A DNA stretch of 61,365 bases, filler included, from Candidatus Aminicenantales bacterium (GTDB lineage Bacteria; Acidobacteriota; Aminicenantia; Aminicenantales; Saccharicenantaceae), in the NCBI GenBank assembly GCA_049512315.1. It is 5 parts of 4 records of this genome, joined end to end, with 100 filler letters (N's around TTAATTAATTAA, not from the genome) between each part and the next. Parts side by side here need not be neighbours in the genome. Positions count along the whole stretch, not along the records: positions 49,665 to 61,365 come from JBEKXF010000014.1; 4 more parts are not named here. One strand, written 5' to 3'. The notes beneath the pieces are model-generated. The model was not told the origin of the DNA, ran no database searches, and saw only the letters and a program-made list of their open reading frames with translations. Shown piece after piece: positions 16,247-61,365 of this stretch. The position numbers and the translations under genes were made by a program. Position 1 is the stretch's first letter. The number at the start of each line of letters is the position of its first letter.

Positions 16247-17193
<947 letters not shown>

Positions 17194-18995: not shown

Positions 18996-21380
18996 TTACG
19001 CCGGTTTGCCTGCGTTGGTCGCGCCCCACGTCCAATGGCGGATTTCCGGCAGGTCCTCGCCGTATTTGTCGATGTATTGCTTGTGCTCGATCAGCTTGTC
19101 CTTGAGCTGCTGCTTCAGGTAGATGCCCTTGTCGCCGGTCTGCGGCAGGCGGTCGATGGTATCCATCACGAGGTGGAAGCGGTCCAGATCGTTCAGCACC
19201 GTCATGTCGAAGGCTGTGGTGATGGTGCCCTCTTCCTTGTAGCCGCGGACGTGGATATTGTCGTGGTTGGTGCGGCGGTAGGTCAGCCGGTGGATCAGCC
19301 ACGGGTAAGCATGGAAGGCGAAGATGACCGGCTTGTCCTTGGTGAAGAGCTCGTCAAAATCCATGTCGCTCAACCCGTGCGGGTGCTCGGTTTGCGGTTG
19401 CAGCCTCATGAGGTCGACGACGTTGACCACCCGGATTCTCAGGTCGGGCAGATGCTCGCGCATGATGGAGACGGCGGCGAGCGTCTCCAGCGTGGGCACG
19501 TCGCCACAACAGGCCATGACGACGTCGGGCGCGGCGCCCTGGTCGTTGCTGGCCCACTGCCAGATGCCGATGCGCTCGGTGCAGTGCTTGACGGCCGCGT
19601 CCATCGTCAGCCACTGCGGCGCCGGGTGTTTGCCCGCGATCACGACGTTGACGTAATGGCGGCTGCGCAGGCAATGGTCCATCACCGACAGTAGGCAGTT
19701 GGCATCCGGCGGAAGATAGACGCGCACGACCTCGGCCTTCTTGTTCACGACGAGGTCGATGAAACCGGGATCCTGGTGGGTGAAGCCGTTGTGATCCTGG
19801 CGCCAGACATGCGAGGCCAGCAGGTAATTTAACGAGGCGATCTTCCGCCGCCACGGCAGGTGCGACGTGACCTCCAGCCACTTGGCGTGCTGGTTGAACA
19901 TCGAATCAATGATGTGAATGAACGCCTCGTAGCAATTGAAGAGCCCATGCCGCCCGGTGAGCAGGTAGCCCTCGAGCCAGCCCTCGCATTGGTGCTCGCT
20001 GAGCATCTCCATCACGCGCCCAGTGGGCGAGAGAAATTCGTCGTTCGGCACGGTCGCGGCGTCCCATTGGCGTTCGGTGACTTCAAAGAGGGCTTCCAGG
20101 CCGTTGGAGAGCGTCTCGTCAGGGCCAAAGGCCCGGAAATTCCGCTGCTCACTGTTCAGCTTGGCCACATCGCGCAGGAAACGCCCGAGCACATGCGTGT
20201 CGCCGATACCGGGCGCCCCCGGCGAGGGCACGTCGACCGCGTAGTCGCGGAAATCCGGCATCCGGAGGTCACGGAGCAGAATGCCGCCGTTGGCGTGGGG
20301 ATTTGCGCCCATGCGTCGTTCGCCCTTGGGCGCAAGTTCGGCCAGTTCCGGTTTCAGGCGGCCCTGCTCATCGAAGAGTTCCTCCGGCCGGTAGCTCCTC
20401 AGCCAGTCTTCCAACAGCTTGAGGTGTTCGGGATGGGTGGCCGGGTCGGAGAGCGGCACCTGGTGCGACCGGAAGGTGCCTTCAACCTGCAGGCCATCGA
20501 CCATCTTCGGCCCCGTCCAGCCCTTGGGTGAATTGAGGACGATCATCGGCCAGCGCGGACGCGCGAAGTTGCCGTGGGAGCGGGCGTCCTGCTGGATTTT
20601 TTGGATCTGCTCCACCGCCGTGTCGAGCGCCGCGGCCATGGCCTCGTGCATCAGTGCGGGCTCGTGACCCTCGACGAAGTAGGGCGTCCAGCCGTAGCCG
20701 CGGAACAACTGTTCCAATTCCTCGTGCGTGATCCGCGCGAGGAGGGTCGGGTTGGAAATCTTGTAACCGTTGAGATGCAGGATCGGCAGCACCGCGCCGT
20801 CGGTAGCCGGATTGAGAAACTTGTTGGAATGCCAGGCCGTAGCCAGCGGTCCGGTTTCCGCCTCGCCATCGCCGACGACGCAGGCGACGACCAGATCGGG
20901 ATTGTCGAACACCGCCCCGAACGAATGGCTGAGCGAATAGCCCAGCTCGCCGCCCTCGTGGATCGAGCCCGGGCACTCGGGCGAGGCGTGGCTGGGAATT
21001 CCTCCGGGAAACGAAAACTGAATAAAGAGTTTCCGGAGCCCGGCCTCATCCTGGCTGATGTCGGGATAGATCTCGCTGTAAGTGCCCTCGAGGTAAGTGT
21101 TGCCCACGACGGCCGGGCCGCCGTGTCCGGGGCCCGAGATGTAAATCATGTCGAGGTTGTATTTTTTGATGACCCGGTTCAAGTGCACGTAAATGAAGTT
21201 CTGCCCGGGGGTCGTGCCCCAGTGCCCGAGCAGCATGTGCTTCACATCCGCCAGCGCCAGCGGGAGCTTCAGTAGCGGATTGTCGTAAAGATAGATCTGG
21301 CCGACCGATAGATAGTTGGCGGCGCGCCAGTAGGCGTCCATCTTGTGGAGCAGTTCCGGCGTGAGTGTGTTTGTCTTCAT
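18996..21380 (-). CDS. xfp: Phosphoketolase (XFP family)
   Basis: [50 protein letters not shown]. Confidence 0.97.
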
Positions 21381-48146: not shown

Positions 48147-48244
48147 TTTCTAATTCGCTGAAAATCCAGAGGTTGCAGGATTCCCCGGCTTCCCGGCCAG
48201 ACTCGATTTTCCCGCCGTGTCACAGCCGTGCGTATGTTACTTTG

Positions 48245-48394
48245 CCATTTGCTACAATGGGAGGGCAGGGTAAGGTCTTCACACCGGTTCCCAAGAAGGA
48301 CTTGTGACATTTACCGCCCTGCCTTCCCCTTTCCCAGGATGGCCCATAGGATAAAGCAGCCACCTGCTTAAATACGCAATTGCCGCTGGGAAAG
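48245..48394 (+). ncRNA. Predicted bridge RNA of the IS110 element
   Basis: 5' hairpin CCATT/AATGG, then two stem/internal-loop/hairpin modules whose loop strands match the target and donor junctions. Confidence 0.75.
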
Positions 48395-48409
48395 GAACTT
48401 GAGAAAGGA

Positions 48410-49539
48410 GGTTTAGGAATCGATCCGTGCAAGGAGTTCCTCCAGCTGGCCATCCTCTCCCCGGGACGTGACGTGGAGTTCCGAAAACTCCCGCTTCTTC
48501 CTTCTATCACGGCGGAAATCGCCAAGTCAACCGACCCAAGCAGAACCCAGATCGCCATCGAGTCTTATGCCAGTTATGGGCGGCTGTTTATCCATGAGCT
48601 CCTCCAGAAGGGATACGACATCAGGGAGGTGAACCCGTCGGTCTCCAACAAGCTGGTCGACCTTTTTACGGAGGAACATAGCGACCGGCGAGACGCCGAA
48701 ACGATCGCTCGGGCGCTCCTCTTGATCCCTGACCTGCCGAGGGTATCCTTCAGTGAGGAAAAACTGTGGTTGGCAAAACTGAGCCGGCTCCGGAAGAAAC
48801 TGGTAAAGGATCTCAACGGCTATCTGAACCGGCTTCATGTCGCCTTGACAGAGAGCTACGGGGCCGTCTACAGGAAGATTTTCCGTACCCTTTGGACAGG
48901 GAAGGCGCTGACCTTTTTTGAAACCTCCCCCACCATCAACGACGCCCGGGCCCACCAACGGAAAGTCTGTAAAGTTCTGGGCGAAGAGAAGTGGGAGCTC
49001 GTCCGGCAAGCCGGTCAATGGGGAGAGAGGGATTTTACCTGGAGCTCTTGGGAAGGGAAGTCCGGTCGTTAACGCGGTTGATCCGAGTCCTCCAGGCGAC
49101 GCGGAAAGAGTTCGACGAGGAGATCAGGAGAATCGGCGAGAAGGATGAAGAGGTCCAGCGGTTGAGGACATTCCCGGGGATCGATTATGTGACGGCTTCA
49201 ACTCTTTTGGGCGAGATCGGAAACATCGAGAGGTTTGAGAACGAAAGCTGTCTCTCGTCCTACTGTGGCGTGAGTCCCGTGGTGTGGCAGAGTGGGACAT
49301 CGAAGATCAAAGCGAAACGCAGGAAGAGGTTCAGCCGGAGGCTCAAAGGCGTTCTCTACTTCATCTCCCTGTCCCAGATCAGAATCAATCCCGAATCCCG
49401 GCAGTACTACTGGCGAAAGAGACGAGAGGGCAAAACCCACTGGCAAGCCATGAATGCCCTCTCCCGGCAGCTCATCAAGATCATCTACTACATGCTCAAG
49501 AATAAGGAATCTTATTGCCGAAAGGAGGCTGTCAACTAA
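48410..49539 (+). pseudogene. IS110-family transposase/recombinase, frameshifted near 49030, start codon missing
   Basis: LGIDPCK, IAIES, HSDRRDAETIAR; second frame has TFPGID, SYCGVSPVVWQSG, ALSRQLIKIIYYML. Confidence 0.88.
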
Positions 49540-49564
49540 AATATTGACATAGGATAATGTCACA

Positions 49565-49664
49565 NNNNNNNNNNNNNNNNNNNNNNNNNNNNNNNNNNNN
49601 NNNNNNNNTTAATTAATTAANNNNNNNNNNNNNNNNNNNNNNNNNNNNNNNNNNNNNNNNNNNN
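49565..49664. other. Artificial contig linker
   Basis: N-run with TTAATTAATTAA. Confidence 0.98.
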
Positions 49665-49786
49665 TCCTTGATCCAAGTACTCCATGGCCCGCAGGCGTCG
49701 CCCTTCCAGGTACTCTGCGCTTCCGGATGGTCTCATCGATTCCCTCCGGATCAGAGTATAGGACATTTATTATGCAGGTGTCAATA
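49665..49786 (-). mobile_element. Left end of a probable IS630-family element
   Basis: TA-TTGACACCTGCATAATAAA end; TTGACA-18-TATACT; RBS GGAGG; ORF MRPSGSAEYLEGRRLRAMEYLDQG (from 49736) resembling IS630 HTH N-termini. Confidence 0.6.
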
Positions 49787-49991
49787 GTTTGGCGTCGCTG
49801 GCGCCTATTCCCGCAACCCTTTTTCTCCATTTTAGAAGGAGTTCCTTTTCTTCTTCTGATGCTATAGACATCAACTTTTCTAAACAAATAGAGGCCATTG
49901 GGTCATGAATAACTGGATTTCTATTCGCTGTCTGCACGACACGACAGAGCAATGTGTAAATTGCAGTTTGTGATACATCTGATAGGTTCAT
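49787..49991 (-). pseudogene. Class I SAM-dependent (LCM/O-) methyltransferase N-terminus, interrupted by IS
   Basis: MNLSDVSQTAIYTLLCR.......PVIHDPMA resembles LCM-type methyltransferase starts. Confidence 0.6.
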
Positions 49992-50045
49992 GATTTATCT
50001 CCCTTTCCACTATTTTGAAAGCGCCCTTGGGCGCACGTGGCGCCC

Positions 50046-50133
50046 GCCTAACTACGTAATTGGCGAATACATTTAATAGTATTGGACTTGACCTATTTAA
50101 GATCTCCTCTTCAAGCCGATTACGTAGTTCGGG
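50046..50133 (-). repeat. attC-like palindromic site
   Basis: Minus strand CCCGAAC...GTTAGGC, 88 bp, arms AACTACGTAAT(C/T)GGC 14/15 paired. Confidence 0.5.
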
Positions 50134-50470
50134 CCGGAAAAGCATGCAAGGCGATGACCTTTATTTGTAAAAGCCTCATCTGCCGCCAATCCGGTATGGC
50201 CGTCCACGCCTTTGAATTGATAGGAATTTCCTTTCTGTTATTTTCGACGCTTCGGCAAGAAATCGGGAGGTATCTTATACGGACAACATACAAGACTATT
50301 GCATCCTATGCGGATCCATCTAATATAGGGAGAGTCAGATATTCTGTGTAAACCCCTTCTTCGCATTTAAGCACGTTCACCCAAACCGTCGCCAAAACAG
50401 ATTATCAACTGGGAGTATATCATAGCCCAGTCCCTATGGCGGAAGGTCCACTTCTTCGAAGGTCCTAGGG

Positions 50471-50507
50471 TTGAAAACCTCACTTCAGAGGTGGTACATT
50501 GAGCGGA
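50471..50507 (+). promoter_or_regulatory. 37-bp repeated promoter-like module, copy 3
   Basis: TTGAAAACCTCACTTCAGAGGTGGTACATTGAGCGGA; 32/37 identical to 21549-21585. Confidence 0.6.
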
Positions 50508-50542
50508 AGCAGGTCAGACTGGCTTCGATTTTGCGTCCCCTG

Positions 50543-51988
50543 ATGAGTCCGCTTCCGGCACGAGTTCTTGTGACCGGCGCGACCGGATATGTCGGGCGGC
50601 GATTGGCCGACAGGTTCATTCGCGACGGCCTGGTTCCGGTTCGCCTTCTGGTTCGGAATCCCGCTAAGCTCGATGTCCTTTTGCGGAACTCCGCCGAGAT
50701 CGTCAAAGGAAACACTCTCGAGCCTGAGACGCTCGGCCCCGCGCTCAACAGCATAGAAACCGCCTTTTACCTTGTCCATTCGATGGGGGCCGGCGCCGTG
50801 TTTCCCGAGCTCGACAGACGGAGTGCCGAGAATTTCCGGAACGCCTGCATCCAGGCGGGCGTCAAACGGATTGTCTACCTGGGAGGGCTTGGCGAGAAGG
50901 GTACGGCCAGCCGCCACCTGCTCAGCCGGCTCGAGACGGGAGAAATCCTGAGCGCCCGGCCGGACCTTCTGCAGACGGTCTGGTTTCGGGCCGGCATCAT
51001 CATCGGCTCGGGAAGCGCCAGTTTTGAGATCATTAGAGGCCTCGTCCGCAAGCTCCCGGTCATGATCACGCCGCGATTCGTGAACACGCGAACTCAGCCC
51101 ATCGCCGTTGCGGACGTCATCCAATACCTCGTCCGGGCTGCCGGCACGTTCCCGCCCGGGAACCTCATCGTGGATATCGGAGGGGAGGCAATGACCTTCC
51201 GGGAGATGCTCCTTAGGACTTCCGCCGTCATGGGCCTCAAACGCCTTCTCATCCCGGTTCCGGTGTTCACGCCCAGGCTTTCCTCCTACTGGCTCGTCCT
51301 AATGACTCCTGTCCCCTACCGAATCGCCGGTGCCCTCGTCAATGGCTTGAAGTCCGAATCCGTCGTCCAGAATGACCTGGCCACCCGGATTTTTCCGGAC
51401 ATCAAACCAGTGAATTTCGATACCGCTGTCCGCCAGGCGATCGGAGAGGTTTCAGATAATAAGGTCGTGAGCGCCTGGTGCGACAGCAGCGCCAGAGAGG
51501 TTTGCGACGTGGAGGGGCGCGCCCGGATCGGGGACAAGGTCTTAAGGGACGAACAGTTTTTCCCATTTCAAGGCATTTCCTCCACTCGAGTTTTTAACAC
51601 TGCCCAAGCCATCGGCGGGGAGAACGGTTGGTACGCCTACAATTGGCTGTGGAAGATCAGGGGTGGCGTGGACAAGGTCCTCGGCGGGCCGGGACTCATC
51701 CGCGGGCGTCGGGACCCAAAGATGCTGCGGGTCGGAGACAGCCTGGATTTCTGGAAAGTCGTTGATCTCCGTGACGGAGAAAGGATCCTTCTTGCGAACC
51801 AGATGAAGCTCCCGGGAGAGGCCTGGCTCGAGTTCTTGATTAGGGACGATACCCTCATCCAGAAGGCCTATTTCGTTCCCCGCGGGTTATGGGGCAGGAT
51901 ATACTGGTTCCTGATGAAACCGTTCCATACCCTGATCTTTGGAGCCATGGGCCAGGCCATCCTCCGGAGGGCAAAGGGTGCCTTCTGA
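50543..51988 (+). CDS. SDR/NAD(P)-binding protein with DUF2867 (YbjT-like)
   Basis: VTGATGYVG, YLVHSM, IIGSGSASFE, IGGENGW, MKLPGEAWLEF. Confidence 0.9.
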   Translation: MSPLPARVLVTGATGYVGRRLADRFIRDGLVPVRLLVRNPAKLDVLLRNSAEIVKGNTLEPETLGPALNSIETAFYLVHSMGAGAVFPELDRRSAENFRNACIQAGVKRIVYLGGLGEKGTASRHLLSRLETGEILSARPDLLQTVWFRAGIIIGSGSASFEIIRGLVRKLPVMITPRFVNTRTQPIAVADVIQYLVRAAGTFPPGNLIVDIGGEAMTFREMLLRTSAVMGLKRLLIPVPVFTPRLSSYWLVLMTPVPYRIAGALVNGLKSESVVQNDLATRIFPDIKPVNFDTAVRQAIGEVSDNKVVSAWCDSSAREVCDVEGRARIGDKVLRDEQFFPFQGISSTRVFNTAQAIGGENGWYAYNWLWKIRGGVDKVLGGPGLIRGRRDPKMLRVGDSLDFWKVVDLRDGERILLANQMKLPGEAWLEFLIRDDTLIQKAYFVPRGLWGRIYWFLMKPFHTLIFGAMGQAILRRAKGAF

Positions 51989-52158
51989 GTCACGGTGGGC
52001 TGATCGCTCTTGAGGCGGTATGGAGGGACCTGCTCGCCGAATCCCGGTCCATTGGGAGGAACAGTTTGCCAGAAAATTCGCATTATGTCTGGACCATTCT
52101 AAAGGGATGAACTCCAATTGATATGTGTAAAATTAGTTGATATAATCAAAAAATAAAG

Positions 52159-52782
52159 ATGATCATTCCCTTTATTATAATCATAATACTTGCCCTTTGG
52201 TCATTGTGGGGATACTTTTCTTCTCGCGTTGAACATACGGATTATAATGTCATTCAAAAAATGGCGGATTATGAAATCCGAGAATATCCGGCTCATATTG
52301 TCGCTCAAACCACTGCTAAAGGAACATATCGAGAGGCTCTGAATCTTGGCTTTAGAATTGTCGCCGGCTACATTTTTGGCGGTAACACTAAAAAGCAGAC
52401 CATTGCTACTACAGCTCTTGTTACCGCACAGAGGGATATTTCAGAAAAAATATCCATGACCGCGCCGGTGCTGGCCACCACAGAAGGCGACTCGCATATT
52501 ATCTCTTTTGGTATGCCTCGTTCGTATACTTTAGAAACGTTACCCAAGCCCTTAGACCCACAGGTGGAAATTGTGCCGATACCCCTTAAGAGATTTGCGG
52601 CGCTGAAATTTTCTTGGTCTAGGGCAGATGCCAGGGTTAAGAGAATGGAAATAAAACTGCTTTCTGCGCTCGCGCGCGATAAAGTGGAGGTAGCGGGTAG
52701 CCCGGTATATGCCGGATATAATGCGCCATGGACTCCGCCTTGGATGGTCCGAAACGAGATAATGGTGGAGATAGTAAAATAA
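52159..52782 (+). CDS. SOUL-family heme-binding protein
   Basis: YEIREYP, GFRIVAGYIFGGN, ISMTAPV, AGYNAPWTPPWMVRNEI. Confidence 0.9.
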   Translation: MIIPFIIIIILALWSLWGYFSSRVEHTDYNVIQKMADYEIREYPAHIVAQTTAKGTYREALNLGFRIVAGYIFGGNTKKQTIATTALVTAQRDISEKISMTAPVLATTEGDSHIISFGMPRSYTLETLPKPLDPQVEIVPIPLKRFAALKFSWSRADARVKRMEIKLLSALARDKVEVAGSPVYAGYNAPWTPPWMVRNEIMVEIVK

Positions 52783-52797
52783 ATTGGCAAGAATATT

Positions 52798-53196
52798 ATG
52801 TTTATAAAACTTTACATTATTGCCCTGCCAGTTTTCCTTGCCATTGATATGGCTTGGCTGGGGCTTGTCGCTAAGAATTTCTACGCCAAACGAATCGGCT
52901 TTTTGATGAAGACCGACATTAATTGGACGGCGGCCGTTCTTTTTTACCTCCTCTTCATTATCGGACTGGTCCTCTTTGTTATTATGCCGGCAGTTGGAAA
53001 GAACTCGTGGGTACACGCGCTGTCGTTCGGCGCATTGTTCGGGCTCATTGCCTACGCGACGTATGATCTAACTAACCTCGCTACGCTTAAGGACTGGCCG
53101 CTTATTGTAACAATTGTAGACTTGGCGTGGGGCGCTGTGCTTGCAGGTTCTGTCTCGACGGTGACCTTCTTCATTGCAAGTAAGATCGGCCCATGA
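52798..53196 (+). CDS. DUF2177-family membrane protein
   Basis: IDMAWLG...FY; AYATYDLTNLATLKDWP...VDLAWG. Confidence 0.88.
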   Translation: MFIKLYIIALPVFLAIDMAWLGLVAKNFYAKRIGFLMKTDINWTAAVLFYLLFIIGLVLFVIMPAVGKNSWVHALSFGALFGLIAYATYDLTNLATLKDWPLIVTIVDLAWGAVLAGSVSTVTFFIASKIGP

Positions 53197-53966
53197 ACTA
53201 TTATCTAACCCTTGCCTTAGTCCTATTCGTATACATGAGCCTGTGGTTCATGGCTTCTTTGGTTAAAAAAAGAAATGATATAGCTGATGTAGCGTGGGGG
53301 TTGGGGTTTGTACTCCTTGCATGGGTATCCTATTTTATTTACGCCGATTCCGGAATACGAGGACTATTCGTAGGAACGCTGGTGAGCATTTGGGGATTGC
53401 GCTTGGCGTGGCATATTTACACGCGCAATAAAGGTAAAGCGGAGGATTACCGGTATCTGGCGTGACGGAAAAAATGGGGCAAGTGGCTTTATCTTCGCTC
53501 TTATGCGCAAATTTATTTATTACAGGGCGCGCTATTGTTTCTCATTATTTTACCAGTGCTGCTTACCAATAGGAGCGCCGGACAAGCACTCGGCTTTCTT
53601 GATGGCGCCGGTGTTGCGGTGTGGCTTATTGGCTTTTTCTTTGAGTCCGTAGGCGATGCGCAGCTTGCGAAGTTTATTAGTAATCCGATAAATAATGGCA
53701 AGCTTATGCAAAGCGGACTGTGGCAATATACCCGTCACCCCAACTATTTTGGCGAAGTCACCCAGTGGTGGAGCATTTGGCTTATTGCGCTTTCCGTGCC
53801 GTACGGCCTCTTTGGTATCATTGGCCCCATCACCATCACTATATTGATATTAAAAGTGTCCGGCATCCCGATCCTTGAGAAAAAAATGGCCGAAAATCCG
53901 GAATTTGTGCTGTACAAAAAGCGAGTGAGCGTCTTTTTCCCGATGTCACCGAAAACGAAAATCTAA
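53193..53966 (+). pseudogene. DUF1295-family (steroid 5-alpha-reductase-like) membrane protein with in-frame TGA at 53463-53465
   Basis: ADVAWGLGF, WGLRLA, EDYRYLA*RKKWG, GLWQYTRHPNYFGE all in one frame. Confidence 0.85.
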
Positions 53967-53978
53967 GCCCCAAAATAT

Positions 53979-54326
53979 ATGCGAATATGGGATATTCACC
54001 CAAAATTTTTATGCCGTAAACACTTGCTCGGTGAGCATCGTGAGCTTCATGGCTTGTGGAATATCTTGACCAGGCATAAAGGCAAGTGCGGATATTCGCG
54101 CCATCCGGAGACATTACGCTGGGTCGGTAAACGAAAAGCGCTTTATATTCGGCATGAGGTATTGGTGAAGGAATTTTCCCGTCGCGGATATTCACACCAC
54201 ACCCCGCTCGATAAACGATTGGCTACCGGTTCGGGCAATCAAAATGTTTTCATTAACACTGTCAAAGAGCAACAAGTGATACTTAAGCAGAAACCCTGTG
54301 ACTGTTTTTTTCATTTCTCCTCTTAA
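53979..54326 (+). CDS. Pyrimidine-dimer DNA glycosylase/endonuclease V-like protein
   Basis: MRIWDIHP..LCRKHLLGEHRELH, YSRHPET.RW, LYIRHE.LV.E..RRGY.H. Confidence 0.85.
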   Translation: MRIWDIHPKFLCRKHLLGEHRELHGLWNILTRHKGKCGYSRHPETLRWVGKRKALYIRHEVLVKEFSRRGYSHHTPLDKRLATGSGNQNVFINTVKEQQVILKQKPCDCFFHFSS

Positions 54327-54547
54327 GCTCCCGCCGGGCAGAGTCTTCTCTGGGCTTCTTTTAGTACTTTGATCTGGGCGCCTAGGGAGTTGTGCTTGAG
54401 GAAGGTTCGAAGTTCGTATATTAAGGCACGCTCCGTTTGACTTCCCGCCCTTACGGCGTTATCCTCTCGCCAAGCAAAGTATGAGGGGATAAGGGCTAGA
54501 ATAAGGTGCCCGAACTCCAACACGACAATTCTCTTTAGGGGGACGTT

Positions 54548-56965
54548 ATGGACAAGAAGGAGTCTTCCGAAAAGACAATAACCTTGGCTTCAACTGGCGG
54601 GACTGCTCAAACCATCGGCCCCTATCATCTGCTCCAGAAGATCGGCGCGGGCGGAATGGGCGAAGTCTGGGTCGCTGAACAGCACAAGCCGATCCACCGG
54701 CGTGTAGCCCTGAAGCTTATCAAGGCGGGCATGGATACAAGCCAGGTCATCTCCCGCTTCGAATCGGAACGTCAGGCCCTGGCACTGATGGACCATCCGG
54801 TAATTGCCAAGGTATTCGACGCCGGGGAAACGGGCGATGGCCGGCCCTATTTCGTCATGGAATATATTCAGGGCATCCCCATCACAAAGTACTGCGACCA
54901 GAACCGCCTGACGACCAAGGAACGGCTGGAGCTTTTCCGGCACATTTGCGAGGGGGTCCAGCACGCCCACCAGAAGGCGATCATCCATCGCGACCTCAAA
55001 CCCTCCAATATTCTCGTCGCCATCCAGGACGGGGTCGCCGTGCCCAAGATCATCGACTTCGGCGTGGCCAAGGCGACGGCCCAGACCCTGACCGAGAGGA
55101 CGATGTACACCGAGCTGGGGATGCTCATCGGGACGCCGGAGTACATGAGTCCTGAGCAGGCGGAGATGTCGGGCCAGAACGTCGACACCCGGACCGACGT
55201 CTACTCGCTGGGCGCGATCCTCTATGAGCTCTTGGTCGGAGTCCTGCCTTTCGATCCCAAGGAGCTGAGGCGGGCCGGCTACGACGAGATCCGCCGGAAG
55301 ATCCGGGAGGAAGACCCGCCCCGGCCGAGCACCAAGCTGAGCACGATGGGCGATGCGTCGACGACCCAGGCCCAGAACCGGCGCACGGAGCGCCCGGCAC
55401 TTATCCGGGAGATCCGGGGTGACCTCGATTGGATCACGATGAAAGCGCTGGAGAAGGACCGGACGCGGCGCTACGGGTCGCCCTCGGACCTGGAGGCCGA
55501 CATCGACCGGTATCTGCACCATCAGCCGATTGTCGCCCGCCCGCCGAGCACTGTCTATAAAGCGAGGAAATTCGTCCGCCGCCACAGGTTCGGCGTCGGG
55601 GTGGCCTCGGCCATCGCGGTCCTTCTGGTCGTTTTCTCGGTGACGACGGCCATCCAGGCCCGCCGCATCGCCCGCGAGCGCGACCGGGCCAACCAGGAGG
55701 CCGAGGCCTCGCGCCAGGTTTCGGATTTCCTGACCGGGCTTTTCAAGGTCTCCGACCCGAGCGAAGCCCGGGGTAACAGCGTCACGGCCCGGGAAATCCT
55801 GGACAAGGGTGCGGACAAGATCGCCCGCGATCTCCAGGGGCAACCTCTCGTCCAGGGCAAGCTTATGAACACGATGGGCTACGTCTACGAGAGCCTCGGC
55901 CTGTATGACCCGGCCCGGGGCCTCTTGGAGAAGGCCCTAGACATCCGCACGAAAGCCCTCGGCCCGGATCATCCGGATGTGGCGATTACCCTGTCCGAGC
56001 TCGGCACGGTGGTGTGGCGCAAGGGCGATTTCGCCAGGGCGAAAGCCCTCCAGGAGCAGGCCTTGGCCATTCGCGAGAAGCGACTCGGTCCGGACAGCAA
56101 GGAAGTGGCCTCCAGCCTTCATAACTTGGGCAATCTCAACTGGAGCCAGGGGAATTATGCCGAGGCCCGGCGTCTTCTCGAACGAGCCTTGGCCATCCGG
56201 GAGAAAGTGCTCGGGCCCGAAAATTCTGATGTCGCGACGACGGTCAACTCGCTGGGAGCGATCGCTTACAAAGAGGGCGATTTCAAGCGCGCAAGGGAGC
56301 TGTGGGAACGGACGTTGGCGATCCGCGAGAAGACACTCGGCCCCGACCATCCCTATATCGCATCGTCGCTCAACAACCTCGCCATCGTACATACATACAC
56401 CGGAGATCCTAAAGGTGCGATACCGCTCCTCGAGCGCGTCGTCAAAATCCAGGAAAAGGTGCTGGGCCTCAAGCATCCGGACCTCGCGTCGGGCCTCATG
56501 AACCTGGGGGATGCAATGTCCAAGAGCGGCGACCTGGTCGGGGCCAAGCCCTATTATGCCCGTGCCGTGGCCATCATGGAGGCGGCCAGCCCCAACAACC
56601 CCGAGCTAGCCCGTTTTCTCGACCGGCTGGCGTCCGTCGCGCTCGCAGAGAAGGATCTGAAGGAGGCCCGGGGACTTTATGAGCGCTCGCTCGCGCTGCG
56701 GCAGAAAGCTCTCGGCTCGAAACACCCCGAGGTGGCCGAAAGCCTATGCGGGTTGGCAGATTGCGCCTTCCAGAGCGGCCGTCTCCAGGAGACCGAGACA
56801 CTTTACGAGCGAGCCCTGGCCCTCGTCCGAAAGCCGGACGGAGGCTATTATCCCAGCGCCTATGACGTTCTCAAGGGCTTTGCAGCTCTGCTGCGGGCCA
56901 CCCACAGGGATGCCCGGGCCGCCGAGATGGAGGCTCTGGTCCGTCGCCTGGAAGGTATGAAATAA
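54548..56965 (+). CDS. Ser/Thr protein kinase with TM and kinesin-light-chain-like TPR array
   Basis: [22 protein letters not shown]; repeated ALAIREKxLGPxHPxVA. Confidence 0.95.
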   Translation: MDKKESSEKTITLASTGGTAQTIGPYHLLQKIGAGGMGEVWVAEQHKPIHRRVALKLIKAGMDTSQVISRFESERQALALMDHPVIAKVFDAGETGDGRPYFVMEYIQGIPITKYCDQNRLTTKERLELFRHICEGVQHAHQKAIIHRDLKPSNILVAIQDGVAVPKIIDFGVAKATAQTLTERTMYTELGMLIGTPEYMSPEQAEMSGQNVDTRTDVYSLGAILYELLVGVLPFDPKELRRAGYDEIRRKIREEDPPRPSTKLSTMGDASTTQAQNRRTERPALIREIRGDLDWITMKALEKDRTRRYGSPSDLEADIDRYLHHQPIVARPPSTVYKARKFVRRHRFGVGVASAIAVLLVVFSVTTAIQARRIARERDRANQEAEASRQVSDFLTGLFKVSDPSEARGNSVTAREILDKGADKIARDLQGQPLVQGKLMNTMGYVYESLGLYDPARGLLEKALDIRTKALGPDHPDVAITLSELGTVVWRKGDFARAKALQEQALAIREKRLGPDSKEVASSLHNLGNLNWSQGNYAEARRLLERALAIREKVLGPENSDVATTVNSLGAIAYKEGDFKRARELWERTLAIREKTLGPDHPYIASSLNNLAIVHTYTGDPKGAIPLLERVVKIQEKVLGLKHPDLASGLMNLGDAMSKSGDLVGAKPYYARAVAIMEAASPNNPELARFLDRLASVALAEKDLKEARGLYERSLALRQKALGSKHPEVAESLCGLADCAFQSGRLQETETLYERALALVRKPDGGYYPSAYDVLKGFAALLRATHRDARAAEMEALVRRLEGMK

Positions 56966-57046
56966 CTTATCTTGAAAGACGCCGACCCTGGCCTGCCCGA
57001 GCTCGAGGACGCTCGGAAGCGGCTGGCCGGGTTGAAGGGCAGCTGA
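56966..57046 (+). pseudogene. Orphan coding tail LILKDADPGLPELEDARKRLAGLKGS*, in frame after the kinase stop
   Basis: Direct translation; similar to 24222-24293. Confidence 0.65.
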
Positions 57047-57179
57047 TACCCGATTCGATGCAGCTCTACAGGTGAGCACAATCTGAGCACAGTCGATTGG
57101 GTGCCCCCCCTTCTATGATTGCGAAACGCAAGTCTTCGTATACATTTTTCTTCTGTCCATCTTGATGGCTGCTTCGGCC

Positions 57180-57295
57180 TCTTGAACCACCCTTCTATCC
57201 GCGCCATGATGCGCACCATAACATTCGATCTCGGCTCCTAAACCTAATTCTGAACGCGACCCTTGCGGGCCCGTTAAGGCGGGACCTAGGCAGCC
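57180..57295 (-). ncRNA. Predicted bridge/seek RNA of the IS1111 element
   Basis: Two hairpin-with-internal-loop modules (one closed by GCAA) carrying TCAGAATTAGG, ATAGAAGG and ATGTTA matching the junctions. Confidence 0.72.
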
Positions 57296-58269
57296 TCTCT
57301 CCTCTCTGTCAGCATTCGATAAATGATCGTCAGGAGCCGACGGGCCACGGCGATCTTGGCCACGTTCGGTCCTTTTCTCCGGGCCAGCCGGCTGTGTCAG
57401 GTCCGCAACACGAGGTCTTTCTTGATCGCCGGATAAACCGCTTCCAAAGCCGCCCACCTCAGCCAGCTGCTCCCTTGCTTGGTGATGGGCCCGTGATACG
57501 TCCTCTCTCCCGATGAGCCGGCATAGGAATGAAGATCCGCCGCCCTCGAAAATCGCTTGACGTCCGCGATCTCGACCGCCACCAAGACCGACAGCGTCTT
57601 GGCAAAACCCGGCACGGTGTCGATCCGGGACGCCTCCTCCATCTCCCCATAGAGGGCGTTCACTAATCCGTCCGACTTCTTGATATGCGCCTGGATCTCC
57701 TCGTATCCCTGGAGAAGATCCTTCAAAATTTCCTTCTCCCTGCTTTCCAGCGGCAGTCCGGCCAAAAACTCCAATCCCTTCGAGCTGAAGAGCCCGCTTT
57801 CCCTCTTTTCCACCTCCGACCGCACGTCCTGTTGAGCCAAAAGCACCCGGATCTTGTTCTTCACTTCGGTTTGCTTGCAGACCCAATAAGCCCTCATCCT
57901 TATCACCCGTTGCGCCCGCCGGTTCCCATCCCCCCGCTGATAAACCTCCGGAATGAGATTCGCCCTTAAGAGGTGGGCCAACGTCCGGGAGTCTCGCTTG
58001 TCGGTCTTGATCCGGGCCTGGGCGATCGCTTTGACCTGAAGCGCGTTCGCGATCTTGACCTCCCCGCCCAGCTCCCGAAACAGATCTGCCATCACATACG
58101 ACGACCGGCCGGCCTCGAGAACAGCCGTGAACGGCCGCCAGCCCTCGAGGAACCGGTCCACATCCCTCCTGAGGTTGGGCACCCGCCCGTTCTTCCGCTC
58201 CTGGCCATCCTCGTCCAACACCGTCATCACAGAGACTTGTTTGTGATGGTCCACGCCGATAAAATACAA
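57286..58269 (-). pseudogene. IS110-family (IS1111) transposase with in-frame TGA at 57397-57399
   Basis: RBS AAAGGAGG plus TTG; IGVDHHK, VLEAG, KTDKRDS, TVPGF, YAG-SSG, AVARRLLTIIYRML. Confidence 0.9.
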
Positions 58270-58445
58270 CTGCGGACCTCCTTTTGAGATTTTGGTCCGA
58301 CGAGTCATCTAGCACAGCATTACCCGTCAGGGAGGTGCGTTTCGCTATCATGTTACCTAATTCTGACTAATGGTGCGTAAAGGAAAACAAGGCATTCTCC
58401 CCTGGAAATCGGGTTTTCTCCATATATCCAGAAGGGTAGAGGAGG

Positions 58446-58563
58446 GGACTCCGGATCCAAAGGTCGGAGGTTCGAATCCTCTCAGGCGCGCCATATCTAA
58501 TTCACTGAAAATCCTGAAGTTACAGACTTTTCCTGGTTCCCCGCCAGACTCGATTTTCCCGCC
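58446..58563 (+). repeat. Direct repeat of tRNA-Arg 3' half plus about 70 nt of flank (att-like)
   Basis: Aligns without gaps to 48099-48216; tRNA part 47/48 identical. Confidence 0.9.
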
Positions 58564-59257
58564 CCGCCACAAGTTCTTTTGCGTTGCCGTCCGCTATGCC
58601 GCCTTTGTGGACATGCGGGGGGACCTGCTGAAAGGTCAAGGATTTAAAAATAGTTTTCATCACATGAACACAACCTATCTATTGACAAACAGAAATCAAC
58701 ACTGTATATAGTATAGTATGGGGGAAAAAATTCGTTCGGTGTTCTTGCGTTCCGGTATAACTAAAAAATGCCCGTCTATGGTGGTCTGCCCGTATTGCCA
58801 CAAGCTTTTCGGGGCCTACGGCGAATTGAGGAAGAAGCCCAGGTCCTCAAATGGGCCGAGATCTTCCGGCAGAGTACGGGACGGGCTAAGCGCGGAATAA
58901 GACCTCTACGCGGTACATGCCCATTTGGCTGTCATGATTGGCGTTGGCGTTTGGCAGGCAGGCCACGCGTCTTCGCTTCGCCGTGCCGGCACTGCCGGAG
59001 AAGAGTTTCGATTCTGAAGTGTGGCTGTCCTCGGAAAAGGACAGCAGGCCGGCCTCAAGGAGCTAAAAAGATCTCTCGTCCTGCCGGCTTGCAAGCCGCA
59101 GGCCGATTGACGTCTAACAAGATGAAATTAAATAAGTTATCTGCATTCCCGGAGTTCCTAAAATGGCCTGTCAGCCCCCGGCATGCTTCCTTGGTATGGT
59201 TCTTGCTTTATAATCGGGTGGGACGACTAACCGAATGGATATGAAGGAGGAAAAGCG

Positions 59258-59641
59258 ATGAAGGCAAAGTGGCTGACAATCCTGTTTTTGGCCGCTCTCA
59301 CGCTGGGGATCGTTTCCTGCTACCGTCCTTATGGATACAGTTTCTACCCTGGCGTGCCGCGCTTCACCCCGACCAATCCGGGGGCCGTCGAGCTCATGAG
59401 GCACGATCCGAGGGGGGACCACATCCGGCTGGGCGAAGTCTGGATCCGTCCCGACCCCGGGATGAGCCGTGGCTACGTCGAGGGAATTCTCCGGGAAAAG
59501 GCCGCCCTCATGGGGGCCGACGCCCTGGTGATCGTCGCCGACAGGTATTTCCGTGAAGGCGTCGTCTACAATTATTGGCGCGGGAGGATGGCTGTTTACG
59601 AGCGGCAGATCGTCGGCGTCGCCATCCGTTTCAGGAGATAG
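59258..59641 (+). CDS. Hypothetical lipoprotein
   Basis: RBS AAGGAGG; IVSC lipobox-like; LREKAALMGADALVI. Confidence 0.8.
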   Translation: MKAKWLTILFLAALTLGIVSCYRPYGYSFYPGVPRFTPTNPGAVELMRHDPRGDHIRLGEVWIRPDPGMSRGYVEGILREKAALMGADALVIVADRYFREGVVYNYWRGRMAVYERQIVGVAIRFRR

Positions 59642-59645
59642 CAGG

Positions 59646-59921
59646 CTACCGCCGGAGCCGGACCAGGGTCGCGCCCCAGCCGCCGGCCGTCGGGTCGGCA
59701 TCCTCGAAAGACGCAACGCTCGGGTCTTTCCTGAGAATGCCGTGAACGATCCCCTTGAGCGTTCCGGTCCCCTTGCCGTGGATGATTCGGAGCTCGATGA
59801 TCCCACGCCGCAGACATTGCTCGATGTACTCGGGAACCAGGTCCCTGACGTCCTTCGGGCTGAAGGTATGGAGGTCGAGGACGCCGTCGATCGGGATCTC
59901 CACGGGCTTGTCGTCGGACAT
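59646..59921 (-). CDS. Smr/MutS-domain protein
   Basis: LDLHTF, IIHGKGTGTL, GGWGATLV. Confidence 0.92.
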   Translation of the reverse strand: MSDDKPVEIPIDGVLDLHTFSPKDVRDLVPEYIEQCLRRGIIELRIIHGKGTGTLKGIVHGILRKDPSVASFEDADPTAGGWGATLVRLRR

Positions 59922-60053
59922 CAGTCTTGCAGCCTCCGCTACGTCATTTTAGCACGTTTTCGGGGCCGGCGGGCCGCTCGGGGAAGGCCCGAATGGACGA
60001 TCTCAAGAGTTTGACAAGACCGGTCAAGTCATCTAAACTAGAGGGGATTTTTT

Positions 60054-60126
60054 GGCCCGTTAGCTCAATCGGTAGAGCAGCGGACTCTTAATCCGCGGGT
60101 TGTAGGTTCGAGTCCTACACGGGTCA
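60054..60126 (+). tRNA. tRNA-Lys(CTT), CCA not encoded
   Basis: GGCCCGT/ACGGGTC acceptor, GCGGA-CT-CTT-AA-TCCGC, GTAGG-TTCGAGT-CCTAC; promoter TTGACA-17-TAAACT at 60011-60039. Confidence 0.96.
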
Positions 60127-60167
60127 TTTTGCTTTTCCCTATCTTATTCGGAAAGGAGAACAAACAC

Positions 60168-60557
60168 ATGGCGGGCTATTTTGGACCGATTGAAGAACAA
60201 ACGCTCAAGAATCAGTATTTTCGTCAGGTTTTATTCACCGGCAAGCACTGTCAGCTTGTGGTGATGTGCCTGCAGCCGGGTGAAGAGATCGGCAACGAGG
60301 TGCATCCCATGGTCGACCAGTTCTTCCGCATCGAGAAGGGGGAAGCCAAGTTCATCCTGAATGGTTCGGAAGAGCACCGGGTCAATGAGAATGAGGCCGC
60401 CATCGTGCCGGCCGGCACCTTCCATAACGTCATCAACACATCCCAAATCAAGCCATTGAAACTGTACACCGTTTATTCTCCCCCCAACCATCCGGCTGGC
60501 ACCGTTCATAAAACCAAAGCCGAAGCCGAGGCCGCGGAAAAGGCCAAGCACCATTGA
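60168..60557 (+). CDS. Cupin-domain protein
   Basis: QLVVMCL.PGEEIG.EVH..VDQFFRIE.G; VPAGTFHNV; LKLYTVYSPPNH. Confidence 0.9.
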   Translation: MAGYFGPIEEQTLKNQYFRQVLFTGKHCQLVVMCLQPGEEIGNEVHPMVDQFFRIEKGEAKFILNGSEEHRVNENEAAIVPAGTFHNVINTSQIKPLKLYTVYSPPNHPAGTVHKTKAEAEAAEKAKHH

Positions 60558-60644
60558 GGAATTGCCCCTTCGAACGCAGATCACACGCTGCCTGTTCACA
60601 TCCTTGTTTGTGCACACCCAAGCGGACTATCCTTATCTTCGCCC

Positions 60645-61142
60645 TTAAGAAATCGTTTTCTTTCCTATTGACGAAACAAATTCTCTTGTGAAAGAGGCCG
60701 CTTTCTCTTGTCCGTCATTTCCCAGCGGGCCCTTCATTCCTTGGACTTCACACCGAAGGGTTTTTGGGTAAACATTCAAGCCCAGGCCTCTGGCGACCTC
60801 CTGCATCTTGCCGGCAGCTCCAGGCTCCAGCCATTTTTTGGCCTTCTCCATTTCTTCGGGCTTCGTCGGCACGGGTCCATAGGTATCGAACACCGCGATG
60901 GGTTTTTGCGCAATCCCCTTCTTGTGCAGCCGCTTCAGCGCCTTGAGAGCTTTCCGATTGACCCTGGCTATTCTTGTCGGGGCACCGATGAGAATGAAGT
61001 CAAAGCTCTGCAAGTCCGGAAGCTTCGTGCGAAGATCCTGAACGATGGGTTCGTGCCCGAGGGCCGTGATCTCTCGGGCGATGACTTCCGCGACCTCTTT
61101 CGTGTTGCCGAAGTAGCTTCTGAATAGGACGAGCGCTTTCAT
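60645..61142 (-). CDS. Flavodoxin-family protein
   Basis: SYFGNTKEVA, IGAPT, AVFDT, VQGMKGPL. Confidence 0.88.
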   Translation of the reverse strand: MKALVLFRSYFGNTKEVAEVIAREITALGHEPIVQDLRTKLPDLQSFDFILIGAPTRIARVNRKALKALKRLHKKGIAQKPIAVFDTYGPVPTKPEEMEKAKKWLEPGAAGKMQEVARGLGLNVYPKTLRCEVQGMKGPLGNDGQEKAASFTREFVSSIGKKTIS

Positions 61143-61365
61143 TTTAATTTGATCTCCGTTTCGACCGTGAAGAACTTATAACGTCGATAAAGGCTATTGA
61201 CCTCGGCGCTGACGGACTTTCGTTCGTCTTTCCCGATGGATGCGTTTTCCGTATAGTTCCGGGTTGGAAAGCGAAGTCCGTTCTTTTCCAGGCCGTATTC
61301 CGAAAATGCCATGATCCGGGGTTCGGCCTCGTGGGCCTTGGCCCACTCTTCGACGCTCCGGAAAT
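61139..61365 (-). CDS. Hypothetical protein, C-terminal part (window edge)
   Basis: Open frame ...EYGLEKNGLRFP...YKFFTVETEIKLK*, with its stop overlapping the flavodoxin ATG (ATGA). Confidence 0.65.
   Translation of the reverse strand, partial: FRSVEEWAKAHEAEPRIMAFSEYGLEKNGLRFPTRNYTENASIGKDERKSVSAEVNSLYRRYKFFTVETEIKLK

Follow-up and report, generated by a model that had tools for sequence, protein, structure and literature searches.

The window analysed here, the whole stretch of 61,365 nucleotides from an assembly of a Candidatus Aminicenantales bacterium, carries an IS110-family element on its minus strand, within 57101-58366. With AG, the dinucleotide shared between element and target, counted once, the element is 1247 bp long and spans 58358 (AGGTAAC...) to 57112 (...CATCATAGA). 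The parts of the element and its borders are as follows.

58359..58366, minus strand: left target half TCAGAATT, the outer end of a repeat arm bearing a tRNA-Arg fragment
58357..58358, minus strand: AG of the left junction, taken as the shared dinucleotide; its A is invariant in the 25 left flanks compared
57112..58356, minus strand: element proper, GTAACATG...CATCATAGA, its ends aligned with those of 15 relatives
58336..58351, minus strand: left subterminal inverted repeat, 16 nt, 94% complementary (15/16) to 57115-57130
57286..58269, minus strand: transposase pseudogene with a TTG start (58269-58267) behind AAGGAGG; 327 codons on read-through versus 344 in relatives
57397..57399, minus strand: premature TGA; the aligned codon in five relatives specifies Met or Leu
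57115..57130, minus strand: right subterminal inverted repeat; TTGCGT at 57126-57131 had been proposed as a -35 hexamer
57101..57111, minus strand: right junction, AG (57111-57110) followed by the right target GGGGGGCAC

Read on the minus strand, the left junction is TCAGAATTA-GG-TAACATGATAGCG, with TCAGAATTA at 58366-58358 and GG at 58357-58356, and the right junction is AATCATAGAA-GG-GGGGGCAC, with GG at 57110-57109. Every sequence motif listed in an earlier, sequence-only reading of this DNA was found on the minus strand, each in its place. When the shared AG is assigned to the left end, the terminal extensions outside the repeats amount to 7 bases on the left (AGGTAAC, 58358-58352) and 3 on the right (AGA, 57114-57112). 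The subterminal repeats of a paralogue on contig C50 of the same genome match at 16/16 positions in our reading of the alignment. The non-coding stretch ahead of the TTG start measures 86 bases, against about 175 from the TAG to the right end, so that the longer non-coding part lies downstream of the gene. A simple scan of the linear element returned no promoter-like site. Joining the ends does create TTGCGT-N17-TAACAT, as had been claimed, but as a promoter this junction is weak: the hexamers match the consensus at 3/6 and 4/6 positions, 7/12 together where the scan threshold is 9, and the bases involved are under constraint in any case. A joint of 57047 to 58446 within one contig of run X1 (side 24) was considered as evidence of excision and set aside, as it lies off the element ends.

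The transposase gene is decayed. Past the premature TGA, the read-through frame ends at TAG (57288-57286). Alignment with five relatives (the C50 copy and four others) places three deletions, all in frame: 2 codons near 57828, in the variable middle of the protein; 6 codons, [LV]IPST[HY], near 57517, immediately ahead of the conserved SG; and 9 codons near 57295, toward the C terminus. Contigs from runs X1 and X2, which may represent the sample behind the assembly, show zero differences across 57350-57483, stop codon included. Both Pfam domains are recognized in the window copy (PF01548, 2.2e-14; PF02371, 8.4e-10) and in the C50 copy (7e-16 and 7.5e-19), and the latter scores 211.3 bits against NF033542, "IS110 family RNA-guided transposase" (cut-off 140). 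A BLASTP comparison with the IS110-type ISEc21 aligned 19 N-terminal residues only (E 0.013). The motif GL-P----S(t)G takes the form G[LV]IPST[HY][SA]SG in the C50 copy and five relatives, which are 343-344 aa long; the motif-bearing form of 330-350 aa is thus seen in the C50 copy and the relatives, and the window copy has lost [LV]IPST[HY] and stops early. With a stop codon and three in-frame deletions, one of them reaching into the G[LV]xP----SG motif, the gene is dead. It had been suggested that activity be assayed after restoring a Trp and the missing residues; the missing residues are real (2, 6 and 9 codons), but the codon at the stop would have specified Met or Leu, as in the five relatives, and not Trp.

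The genome contains two copies of the element only. The second, on C50, is 86% identical over the element and 1298 bp long, has an uninterrupted frame of 344 aa and is inserted at the same sequence as the window copy. Querying genome contigs with the C50 protein returned 24 loci, and 14 of them are close relatives (63-82% identity) from Aminicenantes assemblies; the best tblastn match in a plasmid collection was 41% identical. In alignments covering both ends, the relatives are conserved on the left (...A-GG, then TA[A/G]CATGAT...) and on the right (...CATCATAGA-AG...), and their flanks are unrelated from one element to the next. Past the stop codon they share a near-invariant scaffold interrupted by two short variable islands. 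In one relative, L027, the transposase ATG is separated from its ribosome-binding site by a 32-base insertion at ~1170-1200, which resembles a repeat carrying the target of the elements L031-33 of the same genome (...GGCTTCCATGAGT).

The scaffold downstream of the gene corresponds to a predicted structured RNA with two loops, each made up of a 5´ strand, an inner hairpin and a 3´ strand:

57161..57297, minus strand: predicted guide RNA (seekRNA/bridge RNA), 137 nt, 148.2 bits with covariance model R1; its ends are those of the model
57277..57285, minus strand: loop 1 5´ strand GTCCCGCCT, the reverse complement of which, AGGCGGGAC, is AG plus the right target
57254..57275, minus strand: loop 1 inner hairpin, with a GCAA loop at 57263-57266
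57243..57253, minus strand: loop 1 3´ strand TCAGAATTAGG, which runs through the left target and AG into the first base of the element
57219..57224, minus strand: loop 2 5´ strand ATGTTA, reverse complement of the left end TAACAT
57200..57215, minus strand: loop 2 inner hairpin TGCGC-ATCATG-GCGCG (helix 8)
57191..57198, minus strand: loop 2 3´ strand ATAGAAGG, which joins the right end, via AG, to the first base of the left end

Model R1 was built from 10 distinct sequences of the 137-nt region. It matches 44 of 151 genomes of the same order, our genome included, and one of 151 in a phylum-wide sample, namely our genome. The C50 copy scores 153.1 bits versus 148.2 for the window copy. A second group of matches at 58-71 bits (L069-L083) is a diverged subgroup with an extra hairpin of ~22 nt inside the loop 2 hairpin; many of its members aim at ...TTTAT-AG-GAATTTGG..., and three have AAG, not AGG, at the right junction. 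In G169, a genome of the order sample, the RNA model gave 18 matches; contig ends truncate many of these, and the element seems to have expanded there.

The closing stem of the predicted RNA pairs GGCUGCCU with AGGCAGCC. Across 33 distinct RNAs, aligned to the model structure and hence biased toward it, 94.5% of the paired cells hold standard pairs, versus 36-43% when the partners are slid, and at 10 of 38 pairs both partners have changed. Such double changes occur in 74 cells, versus 30.5 in shuffles, and 0 of 500 shuffles reached 74. Helix 3, the inner hairpin of loop 1, accounts for three such pairs out of 9 (CG to UA at all three), and helix 8 for two out of 5 (CG to UA at one); by our own reading the loop 1 tetraloop is GNRA in 9 of the 10 sequences of alignment A1. 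Minimum-free-energy folding of the region was uninformative, being no better than that of shuffles (z -0.30 and +0.25). An Rfam search of 56900-58800 at E up to 10 gave no family match except a sub-threshold tRNA (16.2 bits), and a scan of the whole window at gathering thresholds gave rRNA and two tRNAs only. A partial bacterial 16S rRNA at 16255-17078 (model positions 9-873 of 1533) ends inside the window and probably reflects a contig end or a truncated gene.

Loop 2 had been described as carrying the donor ends plus the core, ATGTTA on one strand and ATAGAAGG on the other, and both are there. The latter is the circle junction in sense and does not vary among the 33 distinct RNAs; CATAGA, the right end, is also near-constant. 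The 5´ strand matches the left end at 4 to 6 of 6 bases across relatives, and its fourth base tracks an A/G polymorphism of that end (12/2/2/7; Fisher 0.0066, uncorrected for relatedness).

In loop 1, the guide columns are the most variable ones of the scaffold. In relatives, the island after GCGTTC gives the left flank in sense, and the island between GCCTAG and TAACGG gives the reverse complement of the right flank. Examples are L025, where the guide TGACTTGCCC faces the flank GGGCAAGTC, and L029, where CAATCCCC faces GGGGATTG. We compared guides with insertion sites in 43 elements, 34 of which retained both flanks and represented 25 distinct guide pairs, each taken with one site. Of 16 non-core positions, 10.6 agree when the loop 1 strands are set against the flanks of the same element, and 5.9 when the flanks are those of other elements. 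The summed score was 140 for the left side (permutation mean 85.8), 125 for the right (66.1) and 265 for both (151.9), and none of 100000 permutations attained any of these scores, in a test that treats related elements as independent and leaves relatedness uncorrected; two pairs of elements with a common target weigh against the signal, not for it. Covariation across homologues and their insertion sites had been named as the way to check the guide assignment, and this is its outcome. Homologues with the same loop at unrelated sites, which would have spoken against the assignment, were not what we found: within L025/L026/L034 and within L031/L032/L033 the loops are identical and the elements sit in the same short sequence, in surroundings that are otherwise different.

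For the window copy taken alone, the two strands differ. The first 8 bases of the 3´ strand are identical to TCAGAATT at 58359..58366, and 9 of 20000 shuffled versions of the non-coding region gave a match to the left flank as long as the 11 bases seen. The longest word shared with the right flank is 5, which 19504 of 20000 shuffles reach. The 5´ strand (TCCCGCC at 57284-57278) in fact fits the right flank of the C50 paralogue (AG-GCGGG) better than that of the window copy. The earlier description of this C-rich strand as a partial match to the right target thus agrees with the covariation in relatives, but in the window the match is at chance level; only the relatives argue for the strand as a putative right-target guide.

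A GG core had been proposed, and the junctions place it one base off. On the left, all 25 flanks have A in front of GG. On the right, A-GG is present at just 14 of 25 junctions, and the remaining ones have GT (3), GA (4), GC (1) or AG (3); by our count the 5´ guide strand follows the non-GG right junction in all 11. GG on both sides was rejected as a general rule on these grounds. With AG as the shared pair, 22 of 25 elements agree. Joining the flanks of L031-33 with AG counted once (CTTCCATG-AG-TGTCGA) gives a sequence with 12 exact copies in their own genome and 0 for a reversed control, and the unoccupied sites of L032 and L033 (...ATG-AG-TGTCGA) show that insertion occurs without target duplication beyond the shared bases. 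Because A-GG varies at right junctions and the empty sites of L031-33 count AG once, we take the shared dinucleotide to be AG, one base to the left of GG, and the next G to belong to the element. The empty site predicted for L025 had 0 exact copies and 6 with one mismatch. The right junctions of L074, L077 and L081, which read AAG, are not explained by an AG core. Tolerance of core mismatches, or insertion governed by the top strand only, as described in the Sun et al. 2025 preprint, was also considered and dropped, as most of the mismatches vanish with the AG core.

The left target half belongs to a repeated sequence, with this unit beside the element:

58358..58494, plus strand: 137-nt repeat unit, a hairpin arm joined to the tRNA-Arg(CCG) 3´ part, which begins at the D loop

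No tRNA was called at 58358..58494, and the unit holds no complete one. It has 41 matches in the genome, for example at 20801/21790 and 36864/37926/39118 on contig C26 and at 2796/3972/6023 on C55, and two complete tRNA-Arg genes only were found among 19 loci scanned. About 35 copies of the 3´ part of tRNA-Arg(CCG) were seen, eight of them with the full 137-nt arm. Some of the units occur in rows ~1 kb apart with single genes between them (for a PEGA-domain protein or an SDH-type protease). At L051 (1504-1899, minus strand), a C-terminal fragment of a tyrosine integrase (PF00589, profile positions 94-171 of 172) directly follows a tRNA-Arg fragment and iterons. The tRNA-Arg 3´ fragments are probably attachment-site remnants of small integrase-borne modules.

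The window copy is inserted at TCAGAATT-AG-G..., at the outer end of the arm of this multi-copy repeat. Uninterrupted arms read TCAGAATT-AA-GCG[C/G]G at eight sites in the genome (0 in the control), a contig of run X3 has the same AA arm, and the two occupied arms, in the window and on C50, both have AG. The empty sites are of the same length as the joined flanks. From these we infer the pre-insertion sequences of both copies, and arms with AA would appear to be poor targets.

A second element in the window was compared with the first:

48231..49565, plus strand: IS110-type element on a separate contig, cut by the contig end and adjoined by a real tRNA-Arg

Its frame is split into ORFs 48380-49072 and 48991-49539. 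Two further contig ends carry the same 3´ end, and therefore several copies are collapsed in the assembly. Beside the window, loci L049, L050 and L051 were looked at for this element. Judged by an empty homologous site, it inserted at a TG in the TGTCACA iterons that belong to the same repeat unit. Two matches to its own ends follow one another in the 5´ non-coding region, first a sense match to the right end (CATAGGATAA, 48345) and then, on the 3´ side of it, an antisense match to TG plus the left end (ATACGCA); an antisense match to the right target is found at 48303. The guide order is thus opposite in the two elements, antisense 5´ and sense 3´ in the IS1111-type element and the reverse at 48.2 kb, as the sequence-only reading had noted and in agreement with the opposite seekRNA orders given for the IS1111 family (antisense 5´, sense 3´) and the IS110 family in PMC11187229 (Siddiquee et al. 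2024). The further statement that both architectures occur in one window has to be narrowed: 49665-61365 is a separate contig beyond an N-run, and the two share one genome assembly only. The N-run that separates the contigs, at 49566-49664, contains the linker ttaattaatta.

Several features are familiar from known systems. IS1111 elements have terminal extensions of 7 and 3 bases and insert without target duplication (PMC11187229), and their subterminal repeats are usually 11-13 bp long according to PMC11187229 and range over 7-17 bp in PMC11208160. ISEc11, ISKpn4, ISPa11 and ISPst6 (PMC11187229) resemble the present element in their subterminal repeats, long non-coding region downstream of the gene, 7 + 3 extensions and lack of target duplication; in a transposase of 330-350 aa with GL-P----S(t)G (as seen in the C50 copy and the relatives; the motif is incomplete in the window copy); in guide segments that overlap in the target; and in a segment complementary to the top strand lying 5´ of one complementary to the bottom strand. 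The window element differs from them in being from Aminicenantes, in its 16-nt repeats, in its target and in being broken, and it is known here from sequence alone. The bridge RNA of IS621 (Durrant et al. 2024, PMC11208160; structures 8WT6 and others) likewise has a target loop and a donor loop, strands for bottom-left and top-right, the core in both loops, and variable target guides beside conserved donor guides. According to the same source, the IS621 RNA lies in the left end, upstream of the gene, with the reverse strand order, and its core is CT, where the window element has AG; the IS621 protein matches only the C-terminal third of the transposase (E 7.9e-08). ISPpu9 also targets a short sequence in a multi-copy repeat associated with mobile elements; the repeat of the window element differs in being an arm on tRNA-Arg 3´ fragments, which are probably attachment-site remnants.

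Taken together, the locus is very probably a decayed copy of an undescribed IS1111-group element of Aminicenantes that has an RNA guide, which is the best explanation of the observations. The assignment to the IS1111 group is supported by the subterminal repeats, the downstream non-coding region, the guide order and the extensions, and the original proposal of an IS1111-type element with a 3´ guide RNA is borne out by the repeats, the gene domains, the scaffold and the covariation of guides and flanks. The RNA, its ends and its promoter are predictions; the DNA occurs at peat and wetland sites, the four sequencing runs compared consist of DNA contigs, and none of the listed runs is recorded as RNA. 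By analogy with the family, an intact element would excise as a circle that joins its ends (...CATAGA-AG-GTAACAT...), and a DEDD/serine recombinase would act together with a ~130-nt structured RNA whose template is the region downstream of the gene. The covariation found here supports that the 5´ strand of loop 1 complements the top strand across AG and the right target, and that the 3´ strand, which repeats the top strand of the left target plus AG, could pair with the bottom strand; loop 2 treats the joined ends of the element likewise. Recombination at the shared AG would then insert the element without net duplication. The circle, the transcription and processing of the RNA, the binding of the recombinase and the pairing of both strands are all carried over from work on ISEc11, ISKpn4, ISPa11, ISPst6 and IS621 (PMC11187229; PMC11208160).

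The matching segments could in principle work as DNA, as protein-binding or synapsis sites that pair an end with the target. They do lie near the right end, the folding energy of the region is unremarkable and the RNA is here a prediction. Yet one segment is sense and the other antisense to the target, and they flank a hairpin with compensatory pairs, which is the pattern of a folded RNA; homologous families, moreover, use RNA by experiment (PMC11187229; PMC11208160). We therefore consider action as DNA very unlikely. Still less credible, to the point of being nearly negligible, is that the matches are due to chance or to hitch-hiking, for instance of a flank picked up in imprecise excision, and have no function. 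The non-significant right-flank match in the window would fit such an origin, but the left 11-mer was reached by 9 of 20000 shuffles, the segments occupy fixed positions in the scaffold, and both strands covary with their sites across the 25 guide pairs (0 of 100000 permutations).

What the window copy itself can do is a separate matter for the RNA-guided element favoured here. That this copy is a wholly inert fossil, neither expressed nor mobilisable, its intact RNA and ends reflecting only recent decay, is slightly favoured: the gene has a premature stop and three deletions, the linear element has no promoter-like site in the scan, and the genome has only two copies. Against this, the ends and RNA are as well kept as in the C50 copy (repeats 15/16; 148.2 versus 153.1 bits), an intact paralogue with a near-identical RNA is present, and in ISEc11 a cargo placed between the ends was mobilised by transposase and non-coding region provided in trans (PMC11187229). 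Mobilisation of the window copy, with its intact ends and RNA, by the enzyme of the C50 paralogue is possible but on balance doubtful.

A further possibility concerns the two unrelated RNA-guided elements of this genome. Each would have tuned its guides to a different conserved segment of one repeat unit, the IS1111-type element to the outer end of the arm and the IS110-type element to the TGTCACA iterons, and a single base of the crossover dinucleotide (AA in the eight empty arms, AG in the two occupied ones) would decide which arms are open to insertion. On this view the elements would be hyperparasites that exploit another mobile system by way of their guide RNAs, and the number of arms they occupy would be naturally limited, a proposal that we put forward tentatively and rate somewhat short of probable.

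In conclusion, the architecture described here has been known since 2024 and the mechanism is not new. New are the clade, the size of the natural series of guides, the target, as compared with the systems above, and two RNA-guided elements aiming at one repeat unit. RNA-guided recombinases are a class now used for genome engineering, and an uncultured phylum here supplies a natural series of such guides: 25 distinct pairs, each with its insertion site and all built on the same conserved scaffold. While it leaves the known mechanism unchanged, this series, together with the empty sites that fix AG, could help in learning the guide rules of IS1111-type elements.
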